Sequence record: MN871446.1
DNA length: 64,000 bases
DNA from: Klebsiella phage KpLz-2_45
Strand: one strand, 5' to 3'
Position numbers and translations under genes: made by a program. Positions 8,378-59,181 of the stretch are shown piece by piece (the stretch's first letter is position 1; each line of letters begins with the position of its first letter). The notes under the pieces were generated by a model that ran no database searches, was not told where the DNA came from, and saw only the letters and a program-made list of their open reading frames with translations.

Positions 8378-10561
8378 TTAGATGATCTGATTCAAGTGTG
8401 CGGTACGTGTGCTCAATACCCTTCCCCGGAAGAGTACCTCTTTACTCCGCCAGTAGTCGAGATGTTTATCAATGTTCATGCAAACAAAGCAATGATAACT
8501 CTGTGGGAATTTCTTCTCCCCTTTGAGTTCACGCAAACGCCCTAACGCCTGAACGTTCGCGTTTGGTGAGTCAATCGCAACGGTCAGATAGGCTTGCGTC
8601 AAGTTAGGGATATCCACCGCGGTACCGGATTTACCAATCGTACTGAAAATGATATCCGAATCCAGTAACAATTGATAATCGTCTCCTGATGTAAAGGAGT
8701 TGATCACCAGTTCCGGGAGACGTTTCCTGAAGAACGTGGCCAGGCGCTGGCACATCTCAATAGTCGCCGAGAAGATTAACAGCTTATGTTCCCTTTTCCT
8801 CTTCTCTAACCAGTTATCCTTGGTGTAGTCAAAAAGCGATTCTTGCCACCGTTGCTCTCGTTGCCTGTCTGCCATGATCCAGGCTTCGTACGTCGTATGA
8901 CTGTACGACCCTTGACCTCCGACGACTTTCGCTTTCTGCCAATCCTTCAGATTATACTGGACTTTCACCAGATCGATATACCTACTTGGTTGCCCGCCAT
9001 TTCGCCGCAGTTTTTTCGGTAAGAAGGTTTCGTAGATGAAAAGTTGAAAATCCATCTTAGCCAATAACGTAGCGGTCAAATAAATCTTTTTCGGAACATG
9101 CGAATAGAGATCAGAGACAAAGTTCGCATGAATTTCTTTATGCGCTTCATCAATGATAACCAGACCTATCCCCAGAAACTCCCAGAGATCTCTCGGATTG
9201 ATATCTTCGCAATCAGTCCCAACCACTCTCCCGTTATTCCAGTTCTTGTAAAAGTCCCTCAACGTGGCTGTGGAAATGAAAATCGCCTTAACATTATCAA
9301 TACCGGTAGTCTTCGCTTCCCGTAATAAACGATAGAGCTTTACACAACCGCAGCACGAACGAACCTCTTCCGGCTTGAGATTGAGTTTAGCGTAAAACTC
9401 CGGTATCCATCGATCCTCGTAGCCGCCGAGTGTTACCACCGCAAAACGGGTTCCGTTATTCTTTGCCATCGCCAATGAACAAGCCGTGTTATGGGTCACG
9501 ATATAGTCATCGGTGATGTAGAGATGTTCAGGGTCATCAATCATGATGCACTGAGTGGCCTCAGGCTCGCGTTCTTCGATTGAAGTAATAGCTAACCGCT
9601 CTTGGGTGAAATCGACACGTAATGTGTCCCTTGCCTCATCTAAGTAGGCAAGGCCACCATAAGCCCGTGCGGTATATTGTATTGCCTCCAACAATTCAAG
9701 GCCCCCTAAACTAACCGTAAACTCCATTTCGTCCTGCGAGGTCTCTGTTACCATTCGGAAGTCGGCAGGTAAAGTCTGACCGAGAATGAGCGGCACAGAG
9801 AAAGAACTTTCCCCTAGCCGGTCTTTTATTTCGCGGGTCGTGATAACTTTATCTTGTTGTTCCTCGTTTTCTCGTACTGACCAGAGATGTTCCGGGTTAA
9901 CATCGGTATACCGCCCATCAGCAAAGTGGATACGCCAGACGTCAGTCACGCCCTGCGGGAAGACCCCTATGACAGAAGCGAGGCGCCTCTTAGGTGTCAC
10001 GACCTGTTGCCCGACTTTCATCTCGCCCATGGTTAACCAACCGTCAGGGACTCTGATCTTAGAAGAAAGCGTCTGAGCCTTACCGAACCCAGGCTCTGCG
10101 GTGATCGCTTTCTGGATACCGGGACCCGAACCGAATTCAATAATCGGCACCTGGTTATCCCACGGTGTGAAGTCCATCTCAAACTCAAACTTCACCGGTT
10201 CGTACATCGGAACAACATCGATTTCAAACGTGCAGCCATTCCATTGGTATTTTTCCGCTTCCTGTTTAAAGCGTTCCAGTGTGTTGATGTGGAAACACGT
10301 CTCTTCCGTTTCAAGGTCTCGGCGTGCGTAAACCTTGGTAGGTTCCATTCGGAATCGCCCACGTTTCTTCACTAAGTTTTTCTCAATAAAGTGCTCAGTG
10401 AATTGTCGACGGAATTGTCGGCCTTTGGCGGTATAGGCAAAAACGGAAAAGTAGTGGCTATATTGCGTGATACGTAGATCCAATGTCTTAGCCCTCACAG
10501 GTGATAATCGAATCTCGTAGATTCTTTTCTCTAGGTATAGGTCTCTATAGGAATTACTCAC
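8378..10561 (-). CDS. SF2 (DEAH-type) DNA helicase with an intein-like insertion in the Walker A P-loop
   Basis: EPGFGK and TACSLAM join to give a clean GxGKT Walker A. Motif II is VIIDEAH and motif VI is QALGRLRE. The ~197-aa insertion begins AQTLSS and ends IVTHN followed by Thr (HN then +1 Thr, as at intein C-termini). The start codon is GTG. Confidence 0.65.
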   Translation of the reverse strand: MSNSYRDLYLEKRIYEIRLSPVRAKTLDLRITQYSHYFSVFAYTAKGRQFRRQFTEHFIEKNLVKKRGRFRMEPTKVYARRDLETEETCFHINTLERFKQEAEKYQWNGCTFEIDVVPMYEPVKFEFEMDFTPWDNQVPIIEFGSGPGIQKAITAEPGFGKAQTLSSKIRVPDGWLTMGEMKVGQQVVTPKRRLASVIGVFPQGVTDVWRIHFADGRYTDVNPEHLWSVRENEEQQDKVITTREIKDRLGESSFSVPLILGQTLPADFRMVTETSQDEMEFTVSLGGLELLEAIQYTARAYGGLAYLDEARDTLRVDFTQERLAITSIEEREPEATQCIMIDDPEHLYITDDYIVTHNTACSLAMAKNNGTRFAVVTLGGYEDRWIPEFYAKLNLKPEEVRSCCGCVKLYRLLREAKTTGIDNVKAIFISTATLRDFYKNWNNGRVVGTDCEDINPRDLWEFLGIGLVIIDEAHKEIHANFVSDLYSHVPKKIYLTATLLAKMDFQLFIYETFLPKKLRRNGGQPSRYIDLVKVQYNLKDWQKAKVVGGQGSYSHTTYEAWIMADRQREQRWQESLFDYTKDNWLEKRKREHKLLIFSATIEMCQRLATFFRKRLPELVINSFTSGDDYQLLLDSDIIFSTIGKSGTAVDIPNLTQAYLTVAIDSPNANVQALGRLRELKGEKKFPQSYHCFVCMNIDKHLDYWRSKEVLFRGRVLSTRTAHLNQII
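9488..10077 (-). mobile_element. Putative mini-intein (~197 aa, no recognisable homing-endonuclease motif) inserted after the Walker A lysine of the helicase. Coordinates are ±2 nt.
   Basis: The extein junction restores GFGK|TACS = GxGKT. The C-terminal ...YIVTHN|T is a canonical His-Asn plus +1 Thr. The internal TDVNPEH is a possible block-B TxxH. Confidence 0.5.
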
Positions 10562-26437: not shown

Positions 26438-28339
26438 TTAACGACCGCCGAAACCGTAAGAAGAACGGGCACGAGAACGGAAACCTGCACCGTCATAGCC
26501 GTTGGATTCGTAACGAGAGGTATAACCACGACGGCTGGTACGGCCATCCTGAGTAATACCATCAGCGGTAACCACCATGCCTGCTGCAGACAGTGCGCGG
26601 GTCAGGCCGAACAGCCAGTTGGCGTTCACTTCGATGACGTCTGCACGGTCGGTGATCTGATACTGACCGCCGGTGTAGTCTTCGATGATTTTTTCCATCT
26701 GGTCCATACGGACTTGCAGATCGATCGAATCGTCGTTCAGGCAACGATCGTAATCGGCAACCACCTGCGGAGATTTCAGACCGAAGTTGGTCAGAATTTC
26801 GTAGTAACCGATTTCACGCAGGTCACGTTTATGACCCTGTTCGTCGATCCAGGTGCCCAGCAGTTGCGGCATGTCGCGGATGATACCCACGTCGTACAGA
26901 TCTGAGGTGTTCATGATGGTAGAGAAACGATCGCCGGAGATGTTGTCGGCGGCTTCGATCAGCACGTCAACAGCTTCTTTACGGTTCGGGTTCGTTTCGT
27001 CGCACGCATCAACCAGCAGCTGCAGCAGCGGGGTGTTGATGGAAGAACGCGGGATCTGGATCTGAACGATCTGGCTGTTCTCACGAACAACGTTAGCCAC
27101 CAGGCCAGCCCATTCGTCGTCGTTCAGAACTTCCGGGAGTTTTTCAAACTCGCCTTTCAGTTCATAGGTCAGAGCTTCAGCGGTACGCAGCGCGCCTTTG
27201 GTGTTCAGCGGACGCAGACCCTGAATCAGAGCCGGTTCAGTCATCAGTGCAGATACCTGTGCCAGAGAGAACATCAGGTATTCAGGAATCGCCACGCATT
27301 TCAGATCGCTGATCACCAGAGCGATACCGTAGATACGGGTATCGAAGTCTTCCGCTTTCTTTTTGCGCAGTGCAAAGAAACTGTTGGACTGCTCTTCTTC
27401 GCCTTTGTAATACAGGTCGACGTGGGAGATCAGACCGGCCAGCTGAGTGGACTCACGCTCGGACAATACGTTAACAATACCGCCACGACGTTCGTCACGC
27501 GGCGCCACCATCAGATCAACAACGATATCGGCGCGATGCGGCATTTCGGTGATGTCGTCAGCAACGTCACCTTGATGGAACGCGATGTTCGCCAGCAGAT
27601 CGTTATTTTTCAGGTCCAGCGCCGCAATGCTGAACTCGTTAGTGGTCAGGATCGCGTTAACGGAATAGATGATCTGGTTGATCACGGCAGAAGCGATACG
27701 CTCCAGTTCTGCGTCGGTCGGTTTGTCCAGGAAGATCGGGGACGCCGCCAGATGCTGAACCTGGCCGGTGAATGCCGGGTTGGACAGGGCAATCAGATCG
27801 TCCAGGGACTCTTTATAGCCGATCGCTTCGTACTGGTCGTTAGCGGTGGTGGTGAAACGCACGGTGTGGTCACGACCAACCTGCACGGCCTGTTTCGGCA
27901 TCACGGTGTTACCCACGAAGATCACGGTAGACGCGAAGATCATGCCGTTGTCTTTCAGACGGGCAGCGATGACCGCAGCGTCCAGTTTCATTTGGGTATC
28001 TTTGCCTGTTGCCGGCGTTACCGTCCATTCCAGGACACCGTTCAGGCTGATCGCGGCGCTGTGCTGTTTCTGGATTTCTTTGGTCAGTTCGACGAATTTG
28101 GCTACGTCGCCTGCCGCAGAGTTCAGGGACAGTACTGGCGCATCTTTACGGAAGTTATAGGATGAAGTCACTTTTTTCTCCTGACGGGAATCATTTTCGT
28201 TGGAACGGGTGTAAAAGGAACGGCGGCGTGCAGAGGATTCTTCCTGGCGACCTTCGTCGCGAGAAGTTTCCTGCGCACCAGTTTCTACTGCTGCTTCTTC
28301 TGCTTTGTTTTTGTTGTGATCGTCATCACGTAAGGCCAT
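26438..28339 (-). CDS. chmA: Probable chimallin (ChmA), the major phage-nucleus shell protein
   Basis: 633 aa with strongly optimal codon usage, its own promoter motif and terminator, and disordered charged N- and C-terminal extensions. It is adjacent to the beta' N-terminal RNAP gene (phiKZ gp54/gp55 synteny), and PhuZ is encoded nearby. I cannot verify the fold from sequence alone. Confidence 0.55.
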   Translation of the reverse strand: MALRDDDHNKNKAEEAAVETGAQETSRDEGRQEESSARRRSFYTRSNENDSRQEKKVTSSYNFRKDAPVLSLNSAAGDVAKFVELTKEIQKQHSAAISLNGVLEWTVTPATGKDTQMKLDAAVIAARLKDNGMIFASTVIFVGNTVMPKQAVQVGRDHTVRFTTTANDQYEAIGYKESLDDLIALSNPAFTGQVQHLAASPIFLDKPTDAELERIASAVINQIIYSVNAILTTNEFSIAALDLKNNDLLANIAFHQGDVADDITEMPHRADIVVDLMVAPRDERRGGIVNVLSERESTQLAGLISHVDLYYKGEEEQSNSFFALRKKKAEDFDTRIYGIALVISDLKCVAIPEYLMFSLAQVSALMTEPALIQGLRPLNTKGALRTAEALTYELKGEFEKLPEVLNDDEWAGLVANVVRENSQIVQIQIPRSSINTPLLQLLVDACDETNPNRKEAVDVLIEAADNISGDRFSTIMNTSDLYDVGIIRDMPQLLGTWIDEQGHKRDLREIGYYEILTNFGLKSPQVVADYDRCLNDDSIDLQVRMDQMEKIIEDYTGGQYQITDRADVIEVNANWLFGLTRALSAAGMVVTADGITQDGRTSRRGYTSRYESNGYDGAGFRSRARSSYGFGGR

Positions 28340-28623: not shown

Positions 28624-29718
28624 ATGATCTCAGCTTTCGAATTTCTAAACCGTCAATCCGTGAAGACGTTTTTTCCGGGACAACTCACCTTGCTGCGCAA
28701 CAATGCCGACATTAATTTAAAGAACATTAAACAACATTACCGTAATAGCATCCGTGCTGTTGAGAGTGATCATATACTGATTCAGATACTTCAACATTTA
28801 CCGTCACGGGTAGACATGAACGATGAACAGTATTATCGATTCTGCCACTCCGCCAGTAAACTGACACACAGGGCGTTGAACCTCAATACGGAAACCGTGC
28901 TTTCTGGTAAAGCCAGTAAACCATGGTTTTACGGTCAAGGTATGACCGAGTTCTACATCGTTGAGGAAAAAGATCTCCCTTATCGATTCGACGCAAAGAA
29001 CTACTGGCAAGAACTTATTCCAGTACGCCCAATTTCGCACAATCTGACAGGGCTTTCTTTTAACGCCCGTGACGGGCAGTACTTTAGTCACTATAAAGGA
29101 AACGCTTTCCTGTCTATCGACATCGGTCTTCTGGCAGTCCAGTATCGGCACTGGTCGCAGTTTAACGTCGGTACAGAAGCGAACCCGCATCCCGTTTCTA
29201 TCAACCAATTTGTTTATCAGTACCCTTTAGTCAACATGATCGAAGAGGACATGAATTTTTGTTTCTTCAATCGTCTTCGGTTGTCGACAGGGTATATCCC
29301 GGTTAACGATGACGCCGCACGACACGGCTTGGCAATCTACGATTTACGTCCACTGGTTGATAAAGTCTGGGAACAGTGGTTACAACGCGCCAGAAGCGCT
29401 CCGCGGCGCTTCATTGACCTTCCGGCACAAATCCCCGGGTTATTTACAGAAACACTTCTTGAAGCGATTACGATCCCGGATATCTTTTTCAACCGTCAGA
29501 ACCTCGGTCTTTACACATTGGCAAATTTACCGTACTTAAGTACCCTGTCCCGTCTTTCTGGTGAAACAGGGTCTAAAGACAACGGTAGTGTAAAAACTCA
29601 ACTGGAACGTTGGTACGCGCGTTTTGTTAACGGAGGTTACCTGACACCGATAACGGGGATTAATCCTCAAGATACTCTACAGGTTCTGTTGGACGAAGTG
29701 CTGATTCCACTTCGTTAA
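28624..29718 (+). CDS. Hypothetical protein (plus strand), divergently transcribed from the chimallin gene
   Basis: ORF downstream of a 285-nt AT-rich region with three TATAATAG-like elements. Its 3' end overlaps the convergent 738-aa gene by ~59 nt. Confidence 0.45.
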   Translation: MISAFEFLNRQSVKTFFPGQLTLLRNNADINLKNIKQHYRNSIRAVESDHILIQILQHLPSRVDMNDEQYYRFCHSASKLTHRALNLNTETVLSGKASKPWFYGQGMTEFYIVEEKDLPYRFDAKNYWQELIPVRPISHNLTGLSFNARDGQYFSHYKGNAFLSIDIGLLAVQYRHWSQFNVGTEANPHPVSINQFVYQYPLVNMIEEDMNFCFFNRLRLSTGYIPVNDDAARHGLAIYDLRPLVDKVWEQWLQRARSAPRRFIDLPAQIPGLFTETLLEAITIPDIFFNRQNLGLYTLANLPYLSTLSRLSGETGSKDNGSVKTQLERWYARFVNGGYLTPITGINPQDTLQVLLDEVLIPLR

Positions 29719-31876
29719 AGTCAGAGAAAGCATCCTCACGAGAAATTTGATCAAAGACCAGTTTAGATTGGTCTTTATCAAAGAGGTAGTATTCCAGTGA
29801 CTCAAGAACCAGGTAGAAAGGTGACATGGCGCTGCCGATAATTTTACGAATGTTTGTCGCCTCAAGGATATCCTCTGGAATCCCGATTGACATGACAATA
29901 CTTTCTGGCAGCAGGATACGACCCAAATAAGTCTTATTCTTCGCTGCCAGGAATTGTCGCATTCGTTTCGCCATTTCCTGATCTTTCCAGTTCGCTAACC
30001 ATTTCTCCGTTTTGGTTTTCGTATCGTGGATAATACTGAACGACAACGCTGAGTATGGCGGCGGTTCAATAAGACCAAACTTCGGCGCAAAGACTTCTTG
30101 CCACAGTTCGTAGTTCAGATACGGCGTATTCTGTTCTTCGGTCTTCTTAGTGTACCCTTCCTCTTCTTTAACACGTGCCGCTTTAAGGTACGTGGTCTCC
30201 CCTTTACGAATCGATTCGTAGATCGTATACTCCCACCGGGCTACCCACCGTAAGTAACGGCTCAGTTCCAACATTTTCCCTTCCGTAACACTGTCGACAA
30301 TCTCTTCGATCATCAAATCAAGATCTTTACGTACTCCGGCTGGTGAGTTGGAAGCAATGAGCTCTACGCCTTTCTTCTCTCGGTCTTCGATATAGACCCC
30401 TTCTTGTACGCGTTTGTTTGCCGCATAGTGCTTAGCACGACTGGTCAACATGAACACCGGGAAAAGGAATTCGTTCTTCATTGCCAGACGGAAGACTTCT
30501 TTCTCGTCCTGAACACCCATGTTTACGGTCATGGTAGCAAGGTTATGCGTGGTCGTCTGCGAGACAAGGAACGCAATCCCTTCAGCTAGAATGATGTTTT
30601 CTTTCGTTAGCAAATCATTATCAGAGTACCAACGAATCCAATCCTGAACCGTAAAGATAGCGGAGTCGGTATCAGACCCTACACCACTGCGTCTAACGGC
30701 ATGGGGGAAGTCAGAAATCAGGAACGGGATGTTTCTTGACATCAGGAACGTATCGATGATTTCTTTATATTTGTCCAGCGTCTGGTAAATGAGTGCACAG
30801 GTGGAACCTAAACGCCAGTAATCGGCTTTAGCAATAACTTCTTCGTGGAACGGGTTTTTATCGCCAATGATTTCCGGGAACATAACCGTGATCTGTGCGA
30901 TGGTGTCTTCATCGACAAACTTCATCCATCCTTCGTAGTCAGGTACCGGCGTTTCTGCTGGAGTGACTAAACCACGAATCAGATCCCTTACAATCGCCTC
31001 GTTGAACTGACGAATATGATAAAGGTCGCCCATGTAAACGAACGCTGCTCGTTCGTAATCGCTACAGCCTTTCAGGAAACGTTTTAAATTGCGGTCTCCC
31101 CCTTCTGATCGCCAGTAGAGGTCAGACGAATACGACAGTACCGCTAACGTTTCTTCAACCGACGGGATATGCAGATTAAACTTCTTAACGGTATTTTCTA
31201 CTTTTGCCCAATCGGTCAGTTCAAGAATACTGGTCAAGTTAGCGTAGACAACATCAGGTCGCCAATAGTGGCGAGAGCCAGACAATAAACGGTCATTGTT
31301 GGAGTTGGCAATACCGTTGGCAATACGACAGCAACTTGTCAATACCGGGTGCGTTGAGCGGTCGTAAAGCGGTGAGTGCTCAGAACGGTGGTTACCGGAG
31401 ATGGCGTTGTTCAGAATCTTTTTGTTGTTCTGATTGTTGTTGTGGAAGGTTGCCTTAATAAAGTTACCGACTTTCTTCGCTTCAAACATTTCATGTTTTT
31501 CGGCGGAGCGCTTTTTCAAGTTACCTTTGATATATTCAGAGAGTAACGATAACTTTTGGTGCGGCGGTAACACGGTCGTGAACGTAGGTGCCATTAACCA
31601 TTCGTTATCGAGAATGTCTTTGAGGTACTGTGAGAAAGGTACCATAATCGGTTTTTGATCCAGATTCTCATCGCGTTCCAACATGCAAAAAACAGGATCG
31701 GTCACGCCGTTATCCGGGTTTTTCAGTTCCTCGACAACAAAGTCACGACATTCTTCGAAAGGTCTTCCAGTGCTGCGTTGTATGAATAAAGCAGTTTGAA
31801 TAATGTACGACTCGTGCACGCCAAGGTCTCGATGGTAATCCTTAGCGGTGCGCGTAAATGGGTTAGAAACTTTCAC
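29660..31876 (-). CDS. Large hypothetical protein (738 aa)
   Basis: Long ORF containing GVGSDTDSAIF, which resembles polymerase family-B motif C. Other family-B motifs are not found in the right order. Confidence 0.5.
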   Translation of the reverse strand: MKVSNPFTRTAKDYHRDLGVHESYIIQTALFIQRSTGRPFEECRDFVVEELKNPDNGVTDPVFCMLERDENLDQKPIMVPFSQYLKDILDNEWLMAPTFTTVLPPHQKLSLLSEYIKGNLKKRSAEKHEMFEAKKVGNFIKATFHNNNQNNKKILNNAISGNHRSEHSPLYDRSTHPVLTSCCRIANGIANSNNDRLLSGSRHYWRPDVVYANLTSILELTDWAKVENTVKKFNLHIPSVEETLAVLSYSSDLYWRSEGGDRNLKRFLKGCSDYERAAFVYMGDLYHIRQFNEAIVRDLIRGLVTPAETPVPDYEGWMKFVDEDTIAQITVMFPEIIGDKNPFHEEVIAKADYWRLGSTCALIYQTLDKYKEIIDTFLMSRNIPFLISDFPHAVRRSGVGSDTDSAIFTVQDWIRWYSDNDLLTKENIILAEGIAFLVSQTTTHNLATMTVNMGVQDEKEVFRLAMKNEFLFPVFMLTSRAKHYAANKRVQEGVYIEDREKKGVELIASNSPAGVRKDLDLMIEEIVDSVTEGKMLELSRYLRWVARWEYTIYESIRKGETTYLKAARVKEEEGYTKKTEEQNTPYLNYELWQEVFAPKFGLIEPPPYSALSFSIIHDTKTKTEKWLANWKDQEMAKRMRQFLAAKNKTYLGRILLPESIVMSIGIPEDILEATNIRKIIGSAMSPFYLVLESLEYYLFDKDQSKLVFDQISREDAFSDFNEVESALRPTEPVEYLED

Positions 31877-53442: not shown

Positions 53443-56001
53443 TCAGGATTCCTTTATAAAGAAATAATTATTAAGCGACAGACGATTATTCAGGTAATAC
53501 TGATTGACGTTCTGAAGGAACTTCCAGCGCTTTGTGGTTACCGCGACGGCGGAGCTAAACGGATGTGCGTCAATGAAAATGTAGTTTGTATTCCAGACGC
53601 TTCGGCACGGGTCAATATCGAGGTACTCGCTGTAGTTCTTCATGACACGGTCAAGCGAGACTTTGTCATTAACGTTCAGCGGCTCAGTGATGGTTCCGTT
53701 ATCAAGATCGAAGATCAGTCGTGTGATCACCACCGAGAACATCCGATAACGTTCGCTGATTGGGTTAGGGCCGGTTAAGACCTTCTCCGGGTACTTCAAC
53801 GTCATGTAGTCACTGACACGTTTATCGCTCTCGGCGCCCATCTGAATCAACTCAGCGTTCGCATTCGTCGATATCCCGTACAGCGGAACGAAAACCGTCT
53901 CTTCGCAGTAAGGTAAGCCGTTAGGGAGCAACGGGATTTGTTTTTCGTCAGCGTCTTCAATAAACGGTACTGTTGAAGGGTCAACCACTTTCCCGTCAAT
54001 AATCGTACGTATAACCTTGTCGTCACGAATATCAAACGTACCGTTCACACTGACATAACCGTGATCCACGAATCCGATATTCAGCGGTCTTTTGTACTTC
54101 GCGCTTGGCGTTTCCCAACCTAAACAGGCAAAGGTAAAGTTTTGACTGTTACCTAACGTTTCATCGTAGTAACGATTGGTGATGACCGTTCCTTTATTTC
54201 CGTCCAGGATATAGTCGAGCCCTTCAATCAACGGATGGCCATTCATCCACACGCGCAGTTGTTGTGGCCGAATAGGAAGAATCGTCCCGAGCGTCTTACC
54301 GTAGGTCAGTGTAAAGCGGAAGATCCCGTCCGAACTCCCTACAACCTGATCGTATACAAGCGCCTCAGAGCTACTGAGGATCAGGCCCATGTTTCTGGCC
54401 TTGACGTGAATCCACGTGACGACATTATTTAAGACCGTGTAATCCGTCCCTTCTACGGCAGGTACCCAGACGTCGGAGACAACTCCTTTGTTGATCGCCG
54501 CTTTAAAGAAGTAGTATTGGTACTTATCGTCCAGCGTGTAGTTGTTGTTACTGGGCGCCCAGGTAATGGCTTTCTTACCCCACCCCATGAACCCCTCTAC
54601 CAGCGCAGCCCGCTCATTCTTCACGAAGTAGCGTTCCGAGTAACCGTGCTGATTCCAGCCCAACAACACCCCGTCTTCGTCGTACTCAAAGAGCGTAGAA
54701 CAGAGCGAGAGTCCAAAGGGTAGATCGACAAAACCGCCGTTCGAGGAAGGTGTCACCTTCGTTGGGTTTAACGCAAAGAGTTTTGCTAATGCGTTGTAGC
54801 CGTAAGCGTTGATGACATCCGTCGCTGTAAACGAGCCCCAGAAGTTTCGCATGATCGCCGTATAAAGAGAGTTTTCCAGGTTCTCTACACGCCACTCAGC
54901 CAACGTGGAATCGAGTCCAATCATTGCTCTGAGAATGTCAGTGTCGCTTAAACGGTAAAGTGTTTCAATCCGATTCACCTCGTCGATGAGAGGGCGTTTA
55001 AAACCGGACTCACGAAGATGAAGACGAATATAAAGGTTGTCGTACGTTGTCCAGCCATCATTCAGATAAGCCGAAACATAACCCGTCGGAATACTGTAAT
55101 CAGCATGAGTTACGTTACGCAGACTGTTCTCTTTATTGCGGTGATAATAGCGACCTGAAACCGAATCATTCGCGCCGACTTTGTACATGAACAAATCGAT
55201 ATCGTCGACGTAATAGATTTCGTTATCGTGCGTATTTTTACTCGGGTGCAGCAGATACTTCTTCAGGTTGTCTAACGTCGACGTATAGTCGTACAGCGAC
55301 GAGACTTTGAAGTCCACTACGTGACTCACCGCGGCGTCGTAAACTGCCTCAACCAGGTCACCAATGGAAATATCAGTCGATTTGATTTCCGGCTTCCACA
55401 CGCCATTATGGTAAATATTGGTTACACCGGTTAAGGTTTGCAGCGGCCGCAACCCATTAATAAACGCAGCGATATCAGTTTGCTTAGTAATCTCTCTGCC
55501 GATATAAGCCACTTTCTGACCGATGTTATTACTTCGCTCTGAACGGAAAAAGGCGTTGTTGTAAATTCTGAGATACGCTTTCTTTTCACTTAACTCGCCA
55601 AAGATAGCGTGCTCTTTAATCGCAATGATCAAATTGTCGTCGTAGGTACGAAGAACGTAACTGCTAAAGAGCGGGAGTTTAACGCCCGTTTCCAGATAGA
55701 GGTCAATGATCAGCGCAGTCGCTTCGCTGTAAGGTCCCAGCGCCATCCATTTTCCGCGAACGTCAGGGAGACCTGTACGCCAACGACTGTTTGCCCCGAT
55801 CTGATAAAGATGATAAACGTCGCCTTCGGTAGGTAATGGGGTATCAACCCAGAGAATGGTACTGGAAACTTTCGCACCACTGTCTCGACTGATTCGCGTC
55901 AGATCGAGAATGACCTGACGATCCTGAATAGGTGCACACCACAAATTCGTGCGTGCATGATCGAGAAGGAAACTTTCGGTTACGGAATTCATTACACGCA
56001 C
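53443..56001 (-). CDS. Probable virion structural protein (852 aa); could be portal or a tail component
   Basis: Large ORF within the structural neighbourhood. Confidence 0.4.
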   Translation of the reverse strand: MRVMNSVTESFLLDHARTNLWCAPIQDRQVILDLTRISRDSGAKVSSTILWVDTPLPTEGDVYHLYQIGANSRWRTGLPDVRGKWMALGPYSEATALIIDLYLETGVKLPLFSSYVLRTYDDNLIIAIKEHAIFGELSEKKAYLRIYNNAFFRSERSNNIGQKVAYIGREITKQTDIAAFINGLRPLQTLTGVTNIYHNGVWKPEIKSTDISIGDLVEAVYDAAVSHVVDFKVSSLYDYTSTLDNLKKYLLHPSKNTHDNEIYYVDDIDLFMYKVGANDSVSGRYYHRNKENSLRNVTHADYSIPTGYVSAYLNDGWTTYDNLYIRLHLRESGFKRPLIDEVNRIETLYRLSDTDILRAMIGLDSTLAEWRVENLENSLYTAIMRNFWGSFTATDVINAYGYNALAKLFALNPTKVTPSSNGGFVDLPFGLSLCSTLFEYDEDGVLLGWNQHGYSERYFVKNERAALVEGFMGWGKKAITWAPSNNNYTLDDKYQYYFFKAAINKGVVSDVWVPAVEGTDYTVLNNVVTWIHVKARNMGLILSSSEALVYDQVVGSSDGIFRFTLTYGKTLGTILPIRPQQLRVWMNGHPLIEGLDYILDGNKGTVITNRYYDETLGNSQNFTFACLGWETPSAKYKRPLNIGFVDHGYVSVNGTFDIRDDKVIRTIIDGKVVDPSTVPFIEDADEKQIPLLPNGLPYCEETVFVPLYGISTNANAELIQMGAESDKRVSDYMTLKYPEKVLTGPNPISERYRMFSVVITRLIFDLDNGTITEPLNVNDKVSLDRVMKNYSEYLDIDPCRSVWNTNYIFIDAHPFSSAVAVTTKRWKFLQNVNQYYLNNRLSLNNYFFIKES

Positions 56002-57111: not shown

Positions 57112-59181
57112 ATGTCAGAACAAATTACGGGATCAACACCCAGAATTTATTACCGCGGTACGAAGGATATTTCGTTCACCCGTTCTACGGGTTCAACGAC
57201 GACCCTGGCTCTTCATCGACCGCTCATCATGTTCTTCGGCCAGAAAGGTCCAACTGTCCCTACCTGGATCGATCCGGTAAAATTCGAAGACATTTACGGT
57301 AGCGAAACTACCAACCTTTCCGGCGTTTATGCGACCCACAGTACTCCTTTTATTAAGGAAGCGATTGCAGCGGGTAACCAGTTCCTGGCCTTGCGTCTGG
57401 AACCGGCAGATATCCCTGACGTCGCCACGCTGGGTCTCTCCGTCGATTGGGTAAAAACCAAAATCGACGACTATGAGCGTAACGACGACGGAACTTATAA
57501 AACCGATACCAACGGTGACAAAATTCCGCTGGCCACGCAAGTAGACGGGATCAAGTTCCGCTTTGTTCTCTCTAAAATCGAGACGGACGAGTCGGGCGTT
57601 TCCCAGTACAAAAAACGTACCGCTTCTGCGGGGACAATCGGTACCGCTGAGAACCCGTCAACGATCACGCCACTGGCCGATTTCCGTTGCCGTTATAAAT
57701 CGTCTCTCGGCGCGAATACAGCGATCCGTATTTGGGCACCGACTGTCAATTCGACTCAGGCCGCTGATGCCGATCTGCAAGAACGTATCAAATCGTTCCT
57801 GTACCGCTTCCAGCTCCTGACCCGTACCGATAAAAACAGTTCACCAACTATTTTTGAGACGATCTATAATGAAGCGTCTCTGTCGGTCGGTTTCGGTGAG
57901 AACTTAGTCGATCCGCAGACCGAAGTGGTTTACGATTTCGCGGAACGTATCGAAAGTCGTTACAACGACGAAGATCCATCGACTTACCTGATGTCGCCGA
58001 TCGATGCGCCGTACCTGTATCAGTCCAACATTGATACCGTCCTGAAAGCAGTACAGTCGGTGGAATCCACCTTCGGTACGGTTTCTGACGATGAAGCGGA
58101 TCTCTACACAATTAACCTGTTCGGCGCGCAGACGGTAGAGGGTGTACCGTATCACGCTGTTCAGATTATGGGCGTACTGGATGGCGGCGTCACGCTGACA
58201 GAAACCTCCACCAACTACCTGCAAGGCGGTGGTGACGGTACGCTGGGTAACGCCAGTTTCAACGCTGCCGCTAACCTGGTGCTGTCCAACATGTCCAGCG
58301 GCGCATCTTTCAATATCGGTAACTACGCGCGTTATCCGTTCAATGCGTTCTGGGACTCCGGTTTCGACCTGAAGACCAAACAACTGATTCCGCAACTGAT
58401 CGGTCTGCGTGCAGACACCTGGATCGCCCTGTCGACTCAGGACATCAGTCTCGACTTCAACAGCAATGAAGAAGAAGAATCGATCGCGCTGTCCCTGATG
58501 TCTCGCGTAAACGCTTTCCCGGACTCTTCTGATTTCGGTACCCCGGCGTTCCGTGGTATGATCGTAGGTGGTGCAGGTTATTACACGGAAACTACGCGTA
58601 AGCTGGCGGTCCCGCTGACCCTCGACCGTTTCCGTGCTTACTGCCAGTATGCCGGCGCTTCTGACGGTGTGCTCAAACCGGAATACGCGGTGGATGAAGG
58701 TGAGAACCGGAAAGTCCAGGTGGTTAAAAATATTAACAACCTCGACAAATCCTGGCGCGTTCGTCGTGCACAGTGGAACAACAACCTGGTTTACGTAGAA
58801 GACTACGATACCGGTTCGCAGTTCTACCCGGGCCAGCAGTCGTTCTACAGCGAACAAGGTTCCGTACTGAAGGCGGCTATCGTGGGTCTGTGCGTGGCTA
58901 ACCTGAACCGCTTCGCTTTCGAAGCGTGGCGTGACCTGAGCGGTACTCAGAAACTCACCGACGATCAGTTGATTGAGCGCTCTGACGAAATCGTGAGCAC
59001 CCGCGGTGCCGGTGCCTTCGATAACCGCCTGATCTTCACGCCGCATTCTGAGATTACCCAGGCCGATAAAGAACGTGGTTATTCTTGGTCTATGCGCATT
59101 GACTTCGGTGCTAACGCGTTCCGTACCGTAATGGATATGTCTTCTGTCGCATACACCAGAGAGGAATTAGCAAATGGCTAA
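57112..59181 (+). CDS. Tail sheath protein
   Basis: 689 aa with strong codon optimisation, immediately followed by a ~290-aa tube-like gene. Size and arrangement match phiKZ-like gp29/gp30. Confidence 0.65.
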   Translation: MSEQITGSTPRIYYRGTKDISFTRSTGSTTTLALHRPLIMFFGQKGPTVPTWIDPVKFEDIYGSETTNLSGVYATHSTPFIKEAIAAGNQFLALRLEPADIPDVATLGLSVDWVKTKIDDYERNDDGTYKTDTNGDKIPLATQVDGIKFRFVLSKIETDESGVSQYKKRTASAGTIGTAENPSTITPLADFRCRYKSSLGANTAIRIWAPTVNSTQAADADLQERIKSFLYRFQLLTRTDKNSSPTIFETIYNEASLSVGFGENLVDPQTEVVYDFAERIESRYNDEDPSTYLMSPIDAPYLYQSNIDTVLKAVQSVESTFGTVSDDEADLYTINLFGAQTVEGVPYHAVQIMGVLDGGVTLTETSTNYLQGGGDGTLGNASFNAAANLVLSNMSSGASFNIGNYARYPFNAFWDSGFDLKTKQLIPQLIGLRADTWIALSTQDISLDFNSNEEEESIALSLMSRVNAFPDSSDFGTPAFRGMIVGGAGYYTETTRKLAVPLTLDRFRAYCQYAGASDGVLKPEYAVDEGENRKVQVVKNINNLDKSWRVRRAQWNNNLVYVEDYDTGSQFYPGQQSFYSEQGSVLKAAIVGLCVANLNRFAFEAWRDLSGTQKLTDDQLIERSDEIVSTRGAGAFDNRLIFTPHSEITQADKERGYSWSMRIDFGANAFRTVMDMSSVAYTREELANG

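Follow-up and report, generated by a model that had tools for sequence, protein, structure and literature searches.

A probable class 3 intein with a decayed LAGLIDADG endonuclease that splits Walker A of a chimallivirus SF2 helicase

Class 3 inteins are defined by the lack of a nucleophile at position 1 and by the presence of Trp at B:12, Cys at F:4 and Thr at G:5, usually with Ser or Thr at +1 (PMC5222942, PMC5050341, PMC3196547). The class is typified by the inteins of MP-Be DnaB, Dra Snf2 and MP-Catera gp206, and a phage origin has been proposed for it (PMC5050341, PMC3196547). Two class 3 mini-inteins of known structure, Msm DnaBi1 (6bs8) and the M. chimaera DnaB-1 intein (6rix, 6riy), reside in the P-loop of a replicative helicase. 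The key residues of the Msm DnaB-1 intein are His65, Trp67, Cys118 and Asn139 (PMC5222942), together with Thr137 (PMC6195587); its splicing is blocked by mutation of His65, Trp67 or Cys118 (PMC5222942, PMC6195587), and in experimentally proven class 3 inteins neither splicing nor cleavage survives when Cys F:4 is replaced by Ala (PMC5222942). At the “classic” P-loop insertion site, the intein separates the invariant Lys of Walker A from the Thr nucleophile, as in the mycobacteriophage TerL1-a intein and those of other ATPases (Kelley et al., 2016; PMC5050341). Here we describe an insert at this point in a superfamily 2 (SF2) helicase gene of Klebsiella phage KpLz-2_45, within a stretch of 64,000 nucleotides (MN871446.1) that we refer to as the window. 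We conclude that the insert is very likely a class 3 intein, situated in the ATP-binding loop of a helicase from a chimallivirus, and that its nuclease has decayed.

The insert is a segment of 197 aa (591 nt, 22.4 kDa) at 9488..10078 on the minus strand, AQTLSS...YIVTHN, which runs from Ala1 to His196-Asn197 and forms residues 162-358 of a 727-codon open reading frame (ORF). An earlier note on this DNA, which gave its limits as 9488-10077, had the start right and the end one base short, as 197 codons in frame extend to 10078. Upstream the insert is flanked by ...AITAEPGFGK, in which Gly-Phe-Gly-Lys (10079..10090, minus strand, with Lys-1 at 10079-10081) is the first half of Walker A, and downstream by TACSLAMAK..., in which the first residue is both the Walker A Thr and Thr+1, the predicted second nucleophile (ACG, 9485..9487, minus strand). 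The central observation of the earlier note, that an insert of about 197 aa splits the P-loop of an SF2 helicase, stands: excision in silico gives GFGKT, and the FBKp24 helicase (504 aa, 85% identical) reads GFGKT and aligns with one clean 197-column gap placed exactly between GFGK and TACSLAM. The alignment with intein-free homologs that the note had proposed thus locates the gap precisely at the site, and at least eight intein-free helicase orthologs align across it. Because the FBKp24 gap is exact, and because the insert matches solved inteins by both sequence and fold, we do not consider the insert to be a chance pattern. Neither a second copy of the family nor another THN/T junction (the slash marks the splice point here and below) was found in the 64-kb window.

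The fold of the insert points in the same direction. An AlphaFold2 (AF2) model built on an 18-sequence alignment has the Hint beta-strand fold that the earlier note had suggested looking for, with a mean predicted local distance difference test (pLDDT) score of 93.3 and a predicted template modelling score of 0.88. When this model was compared with the PDB by Foldseek, the best nine matches were the class 3 DnaB inteins 6bs8, 6riy and 6rix (target-normalised template modelling scores of 0.81-0.85) and gp41-1, while further matches included the Prp8, DnaE, RecA, GyrA and PI-SceI inteins and Hedgehog and bacterial intein-like (BIL) domains, all with a probability of 1.00. There were 53 PDB matches at E <= 0.001, and 50/50 of those listed are inteins, Hedgehog domains or BIL domains. 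Sequence comparison gave a consistent picture, in that a phmmer search of PDB sequences matched the insert to 6bs8 at E 2.2e-7 over two stretches corresponding to blocks A-B and F-G, and the HMMER alignment places His64, Trp66, Cys177, Thr195 and Asn197 of the insert on His65, Trp67, Cys118, Thr137 and Asn139 of 6bs8. Several PHROG families for terminase, primase and helicase loader also match the insert, solely because those profiles contain inteins.

Within the insert, the N-terminal splicing region comprises residues 1-100 (9779..10078, minus strand), with block A as AQTLSSKIRVPDGW and block B as DVNPEHLW, in which the catalytic residues are His64 (9887-9889) and Trp66 (9881-9883). The C-terminal splicing region comprises residues 159-197 (9488..9604, minus strand), with block F as TQCIMIDDPEHLY and block G as YIVTHN, and it holds Cys177 (9548-9550), Thr195 (9494-9496), His196 (9491-9493) and Asn197 (9488-9490), all on the same strand. 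The insert thus has the general attributes of an intein, namely a Hint fold, an in-frame insertion with intein-free homologs, His at B:10, a His-Asn terminus and a +1 Thr, as well as every sequence feature of class 3: Ala1, Trp66 (B:12), Cys177 (F:4), Thr195 (G:5) and Thr+1. The earlier note had called it Ala1-type; this is correct for the residue itself yet does not apply in the sense of class 2 (KlbA). Class 2 inteins also begin with Ala1 and have no requirement for a block F Cys (PMC5222942, PMC3196547), whereas in the window intein this Cys is present and invariant, the Trp/Cys/Thr triplet is complete, and the host is an SF2 helicase rather than KlbA. Ala1 together with Thr+1 and the residue-for-residue alignment with 6bs8 therefore places the insert in class 3, not class 2.

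How similar, then, is the window intein to the DnaB-1 inteins? Both have Ala1, His B:10, the Trp/Cys/Thr triplet, a His-Asn terminus and a hydroxyl +1 nucleophile, both are inserted in the Walker A motif of a helicase, and both have lost the endonuclease, leaving a linker or remnant (PMC6195587). However, the host in the window is a phage helicase of SF2 (XPB/SNF2-like) whereas theirs is the RecA-fold hexameric DnaB, and the sequences are only ~15-18% identical over the structural alignment. In addition, the window intein has 197 aa with a folded remnant of ~58 aa, compared with 139-145 aa and a disordered linker in the DnaB-1 inteins, has Asn at block B position 7 where DnaBi1 has Asp, and is without the second Cys of the DnaBi1 disulfide switch. 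The TerL1-a-type “classic” P-loop inteins share the Lys/Thr insertion point and the class 3 signature but differ in host gene and virus family.

We took 73 related inserts from a search with the whole helicase precursor; in a word-indexed protein search the insert alone gave two matches, and it was the whole precursor, together with an exhaustive search of representatives, that recovered the family. Of these 73 inteins, 70 begin with Ala and three with Ser; Thr stands at +1 after 70 of them, and Ser after three. The C-terminal (T/S)HN and the block B H-x-W are each present in 73/73, and all have a block F (Q/K)-C-I with its central Cys. The His-Asn terminus followed by Thr+1, read as a splice junction in the earlier note, is accordingly kept as His-Asn plus Thr or Ser in every member. 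Invariant in the family alignment (A3) are A1, L4, P11, G13, H64, L65, W66, Q176, C177, I178, T195, H196 and N197. The exhaustive search of 1.84 billion representatives returned 8,643 clusters with E <= 1e-3, of which 3,972 reach E <= 1e-10, and the same intein family occurs at the GK/T point of PhoH, AAA/ClpB, DnaB, RecA, SMC-type and TerL proteins. The insert thus joins a family that is well understood and very large, and that uses the “classic” site in many ATPases.

The same GxGK/T site is occupied by an intein in 13 orthologous helicases, and most of these inteins are ~350 aa long with a LAGLIDADG_3 domain. The orthologs come in three sizes: ~504 aa without an intein, ~700 aa (the window precursor and P0006, an ortholog whose intein has 198 aa) and ~850-860 aa with a ~350-aa LAGLIDADG_3 intein. 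The full-length chimallivirus inteins, such as those of Haymo (HAYMO_291, 853 aa), P0004 and P0007, share with the window intein the gene, the GxGK/T point and the catalytic residues. Compared with P0004 and P0007, its closest nuclease-bearing relatives, the splicing region of the window intein is 58-59% identical in its N-terminal part and 72-74% in its C-terminal part. The full-length inteins differ in having an intact LAGLIDADG_3 domain (PF14528) of ~160 residues with both helices, and in showing a very recent presence/absence polymorphism.

What became of the nuclease in the window intein? Alignments with the ~350-aa PF14528-containing orthologs show that blocks C and E, the two LAGLIDADG helices, have been deleted while the splicing regions at ~1-100 and ~159-197 are retained. 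Between them, residues ~101-158 (9605..9778, minus strand; ~58 residues) are a decayed LAGLIDADG endonuclease remnant. A remnant helix, LLEAIQYTARAYGGLAYL, matches helix 385-402 of the P0004 endonuclease domain (E 0.001 in a pairwise comparison), and AF2 models the remnant as helix-strand-helix-strand-strand with pLDDT 77-93. The earlier statement that the insert has no LAGLIDADG or HNH signature thus holds as far as profiles and the two helices are concerned (a Pfam scan found no match to PF14528 in the window intein) but overlooks a recognizable remnant of the nuclease. The term mini-intein, likewise, is apt in that the window intein has no endonuclease motifs, and so no functional endonuclease, but the minimal members of the family have 138-147 aa and the window intein is ~55 aa longer. 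Judged by these alignments, it descends, with decay of the nuclease, from a LAGLIDADG intein of ~350 residues of a kind that spreads among chimallivirus helicase genes, and it cannot be called a minimal mini-intein. On its own, the window intein is probably no longer mobile.

Evidence of that mobility comes from several intein-bearing helicases whose closest relative, after in silico removal of the intein, is an intein-free allele. Extein identity is 100.0% between P0007 (intein) and P0013 (intein-free), 99.8% between P0010 of phage Haymo (intein) and P0017 of phage Moabite (intein-free), 97.0% between P0009 (intein) and P0015 (intein-free) and 96.6% between P0004 (intein) and P0011 (intein-free); the nearest empty allele of the window intein is only 85% identical. 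P0007 and P0013 derive from metagenomic contigs whose DNA is ~98.4% identical across the flanking genes and which differ by an insertion of exactly 1065 bp; the occupied gene (L007 3001-5580) and the empty one (L008 3001-4515) encode proteins that are identical outside the intein. Over 405 nt of N-extein this pair has no differences, while the C-extein has 21, of which 21/21 are synonymous; 16/21 lie no more than 435 nt 3′ of the site, the first of them in the Thr+1 codon itself (ACG vs ACT). This cluster looks like the pattern expected from co-conversion during homing. We conclude that the intein family enters and leaves a conserved chimallivirus helicase on very short timescales.

A separate observation concerns the helicases P0020 and P0022, which have 98% identical exteins but different inteins at the same site, one with Ala1 (AQSLNS...) and the other with Ser1 (SLALDS...), the latter still with the block F Cys and THN. 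Their sequences suggest that one intein has replaced another, and that a variant with a position-1 nucleophile exists within this class 3-type family.

By analogy with the class 3 relatives that have been tested, we can propose how the window intein would be removed. The helicase would be translated as an 81.3 kDa precursor with GFGK and T 197 residues apart, a separation that would prevent the ATP-binding loop from forming. Assisted by His64 and Trp66 of block B, the thiol of Cys177 (F:4) would attack the peptide bond between Lys(-1) and Ala1, leaving the N-extein on Cys177 as a block F branched thioester, and the N-extein would then move to the hydroxyl of Thr+1. Cyclization of Asn197, with the help of His196, would release the 22.4 kDa intein, and an O-to-N acyl shift would produce the Lys-Thr peptide bond of a 58.9 kDa helicase with an intact GFGKT. 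The predicted junction peptide of the spliced helicase is AITAEPGFGKTACSLAMAK.

Selection on the gene provides indirect support for this scheme. We compared the window allele with three alleles from related Klebsiella phages, and in the three comparisons the exteins had 63 synonymous and three non-synonymous changes, and the intein 34 and 15, respectively. Ala1, His64, Trp66, Cys177, Thr195, His196 and Asn197 are untouched by these changes, and the reading frame is intact in 3/3 alleles. Strong purifying selection on exteins that carry an insert in the middle of Walker A argues that the P-loop is restored by splicing. Against KpSz_1 alone, synonymous changes number 20 in the 197 intein codons and 16 in the 504 extein codons, and the non-synonymous changes 10 and zero, respectively. 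The higher synonymous divergence of the intein, together with its GC content (50.4%, where the exteins have 46.5% and the whole window has 46.0%), may indicate a separate recombination history.

Several observations weigh against our interpretation. We infer splicing itself from the conservation of residues and from the way in which selection acts on the exteins. At positions 12 and 31 the window allele has Asp and Arg; 3/3 of the other Klebsiella-phage alleles compared have Gly there, as does most of the wider intein family, and these substitutions could slow splicing. Block B position 7 is Asn61 in the insert rather than the Asp62 of Msm DnaBi1, although this position is variable family-wide (Cys in 29, Asn in 23 and Asp in 12). 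In the AF2 model of the full precursor pLDDT is below 50 at both junctions (residues 129-135 and 318-331), and consequently that model is uninformative about active-site geometry in context. Lastly, at E <= 1 neither Pfam nor NCBIfam assigned the insert to an intein, Hint or LAGLIDADG family. We regard this silence as a blind spot of the models and not as evidence contrary to an intein: in the longer relatives, too, what Pfam recognizes within the intein is the endonuclease or a homing-endonuclease intein, by way of the models PF14528, PF05204 and PF05203. Pfam and NCBIfam thus miss this intein once the LAGLIDADG domain is gone.

If splicing has been lost altogether, the insert would be a dead relic, and the helicase precursor would be either non-functional or active without a canonical P-loop. 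We consider this very improbable, even though the homing endonuclease has already decayed, G12D and G31R are derived in the window allele, the intein has changed in amino acid sequence faster than the exteins (10/197 codons vs 0/504 in the KpSz_1 comparison) and there is a precedent in Arth_1007, a non-splicing class 3 pseudogene of Arthrobacter (PMC3196547). Arth_1007, however, is without Cys F:4 and His B:10 (PMC3196547), whereas the window intein keeps every catalytic residue with none varying among alleles, its reading frame is intact in 8/8 related phage genomes, and the scarcity of non-synonymous changes in the exteins of intein-bearing alleles shows a helicase that is still selected. 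Less probable again is that the insert splices in the manner of class 2, with Thr+1 attacking the N-terminal junction directly, in KlbA Ala1 style, and Cys177 not initiating. Ala1 is indeed also a hallmark of class 2 (PMC5222942), but that class has been reported in KlbA only (PMC3196547), the insert has the complete triplet, its closest matches by sequence and structure are experimentally proven class 3 inteins, and it is in such matches that loss of the F:4 Cys eliminates splicing and cleavage alike (PMC5222942). We give next to no credence to the idea that the insert is an ordinary helicase domain, or a BIL or other Hint domain that cleaves without ligation. The absence of any Pfam or NCBIfam intein match, and the BIL and Hedgehog domains among the fold matches, might have been read that way, but the insert splits an invariant catalytic motif and is exactly absent from orthologs that are 85-100% identical, the His-Asn terminus, the +1 Thr or Ser and the block F Cys are conserved across the family, and it is genuine inteins, rather than BILs, that it matches best. 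As we read the empty-allele alignments, this alternative is effectively refuted already. A group I intron or other DNA-level insertion was rejected as well, as the frame is continuous and the fold is that of Hint.

A further proposal is compatible with a splicing class 3 intein and would add to it: conditional splicing, responsive to redox state or metals through Cys177, might gate activation of the helicase and so retain the intein. In Msm DnaBi1, the nearest solved relative, at the same P-loop position, oxidants and zinc act through the catalytic Cys to inhibit splicing in a reversible manner (PMC6195587), and in our collection the nuclease-less intein is present in 8/8 genomes of the phage group to which the window belongs. 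We nevertheless think such a gate unlikely. The DnaBi1 switch is an intramolecular Cys48-Cys118 disulfide (PMC6195587) whereas the window intein contains a single Cys, and the close relative FBKp24 manages without an intein. A simpler account of why an intein without a nuclease persists is that any deletion other than an exact one would damage the helicase.

The gene that carries the intein, encoding the helicase precursor, occupies 8378..10483 on the minus strand and specifies 701 aa from a TTG at 10483, although the maximal ORF (8378..10561, minus strand) reaches a GTG at 10561 and it is from this first GTG that its 727 codons are counted. TTG 10483 is the annotated start in MJ359, a 99.5%-identical phage. 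Because FBKp24, MJ359 and LPKP23 are all annotated from the equivalent of this TTG, and all helicase orthologs align from there, the 26 extra codons (10483..10561, minus strand) are probably untranslated. The helicase motifs are motif I (GFGK/T, split), motif II (DEAH), LTAT and QALGRLRE. The spliced helicase matches phrog_16, “DNA helicase”, at E 1.2e-29, its Pfam matches (DEAD and ResIII) are weak, and a phmmer search of PDB sequences with it gave no significant match. The helicase part of the full-precursor AF2 model (pLDDT 79), which was used for classification of the helicase fold only and not for junction geometry, best matches SF2 ATPases of the XPB, Chd1 and SNF2 types. The real helicase would have 504 residues, not 701, and structural and functional work on the protein must allow for splicing.

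The gene is 100% identical to those of jumbo phages that infect Klebsiella and were submitted under the names “Serratia phage KpLz_1_41” and “KpYy_2_45”, and six further phages of ~300 kb have 97.8-99.5% identity over it. It is adjoined by two RNA polymerase beta-type genes, an arrangement also found in FBKp24 and metagenomic relatives. Among the phiKZ-type and other genes elsewhere in the window are a 633-aa ORF for chimallin (26438..28339, minus strand), which matches the Phikzvirus chimallin family PF25677 at E 2.8e-21, a divergent family B DNA polymerase (29660..31876), a DUF7193 protein (53443..56001) and a phiKZ gp29PR-like protein (57112..59181). Chimalliviridae include the related genera Maaswegvirus (FBKp24) and Moabitevirus. 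The chimallivirus origin presumed in the earlier note is borne out by these genera and by the chimallin, whose presence in the window shows directly that the phage forms a nucleus; KpLz-2_45 is a nucleus-forming chimallivirus.

Inteins at the GxGK/T point of chimallivirus helicases are in fact common in the databases, as in Serratia phage Haymo and several metagenomic contigs, but they are unannotated, and in related GenBank records the helicase is labelled just “DNA helicase” or “hypothetical protein”. The earlier note knew of no intein described in such a helicase and, as regards the literature, we can agree: in papers on FBKp24, Maaswegvirus and MJ359, and on inteins in Chimalliviridae or phiKZ, we found no description of the window intein, and the chimallivirus papers that we found leave inteins unmentioned save for one line in a review of jumbo phages. 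The impression of rarity is a product of annotation, not of biology. What is new here is confined to the host gene, the virus family and the unannotated status of these elements; knowledge of inteins as such is unchanged. Its small size, single Cys and Thr+1 might make the window intein attractive to protein engineers as a class 3 scaffold.

Proteins of nucleus-forming phages are made in the cytoplasm, outside the chimallin shell that encloses the genome. A nuclease encoded by an intein must therefore be imported before it can meet its DNA target, and chimallivirus inteins are a ready system in which to ask how homing works when the target DNA lies inside a protein-walled phage nucleus. Might the family have specialized on ATPases that are imported into the nucleus? 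In such a scenario, inteins would ride into the phage nucleus within their host proteins (helicases, an RNA polymerase subunit), copies with a nuclease would drive homing or interference between co-infecting chimalliviruses inside it, comparable to the PhiPA3 intron endonuclease, and a copy without a nuclease, such as that of the window, would act as a gate, the chemistry of Cys177 delaying activation of the helicase until after import. That intein-borne nucleases gain access to shelled DNA by way of nucleus-imported host proteins is speculative, and we think it very unlikely that the scenario holds as a whole.

A full-length intein of the same family, of ~364 aa, was also observed in ORF039 of Pseudomonas phage EL (AJ697969 44708..47818), where it is inserted as ...ERNAAGK/AGVLSSKIKIPGGW...FIVTHN/SLTNNGK with Ser at +1. 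This protein is a “putative ATP-dependent DNA helicase” in GenBank and an “RNA polymerase beta subunit” in the RefSeq copy; no helicase motifs were seen in its exteins, and the helicase label may derive from the intein. In all, four places in phage EL match the intein.

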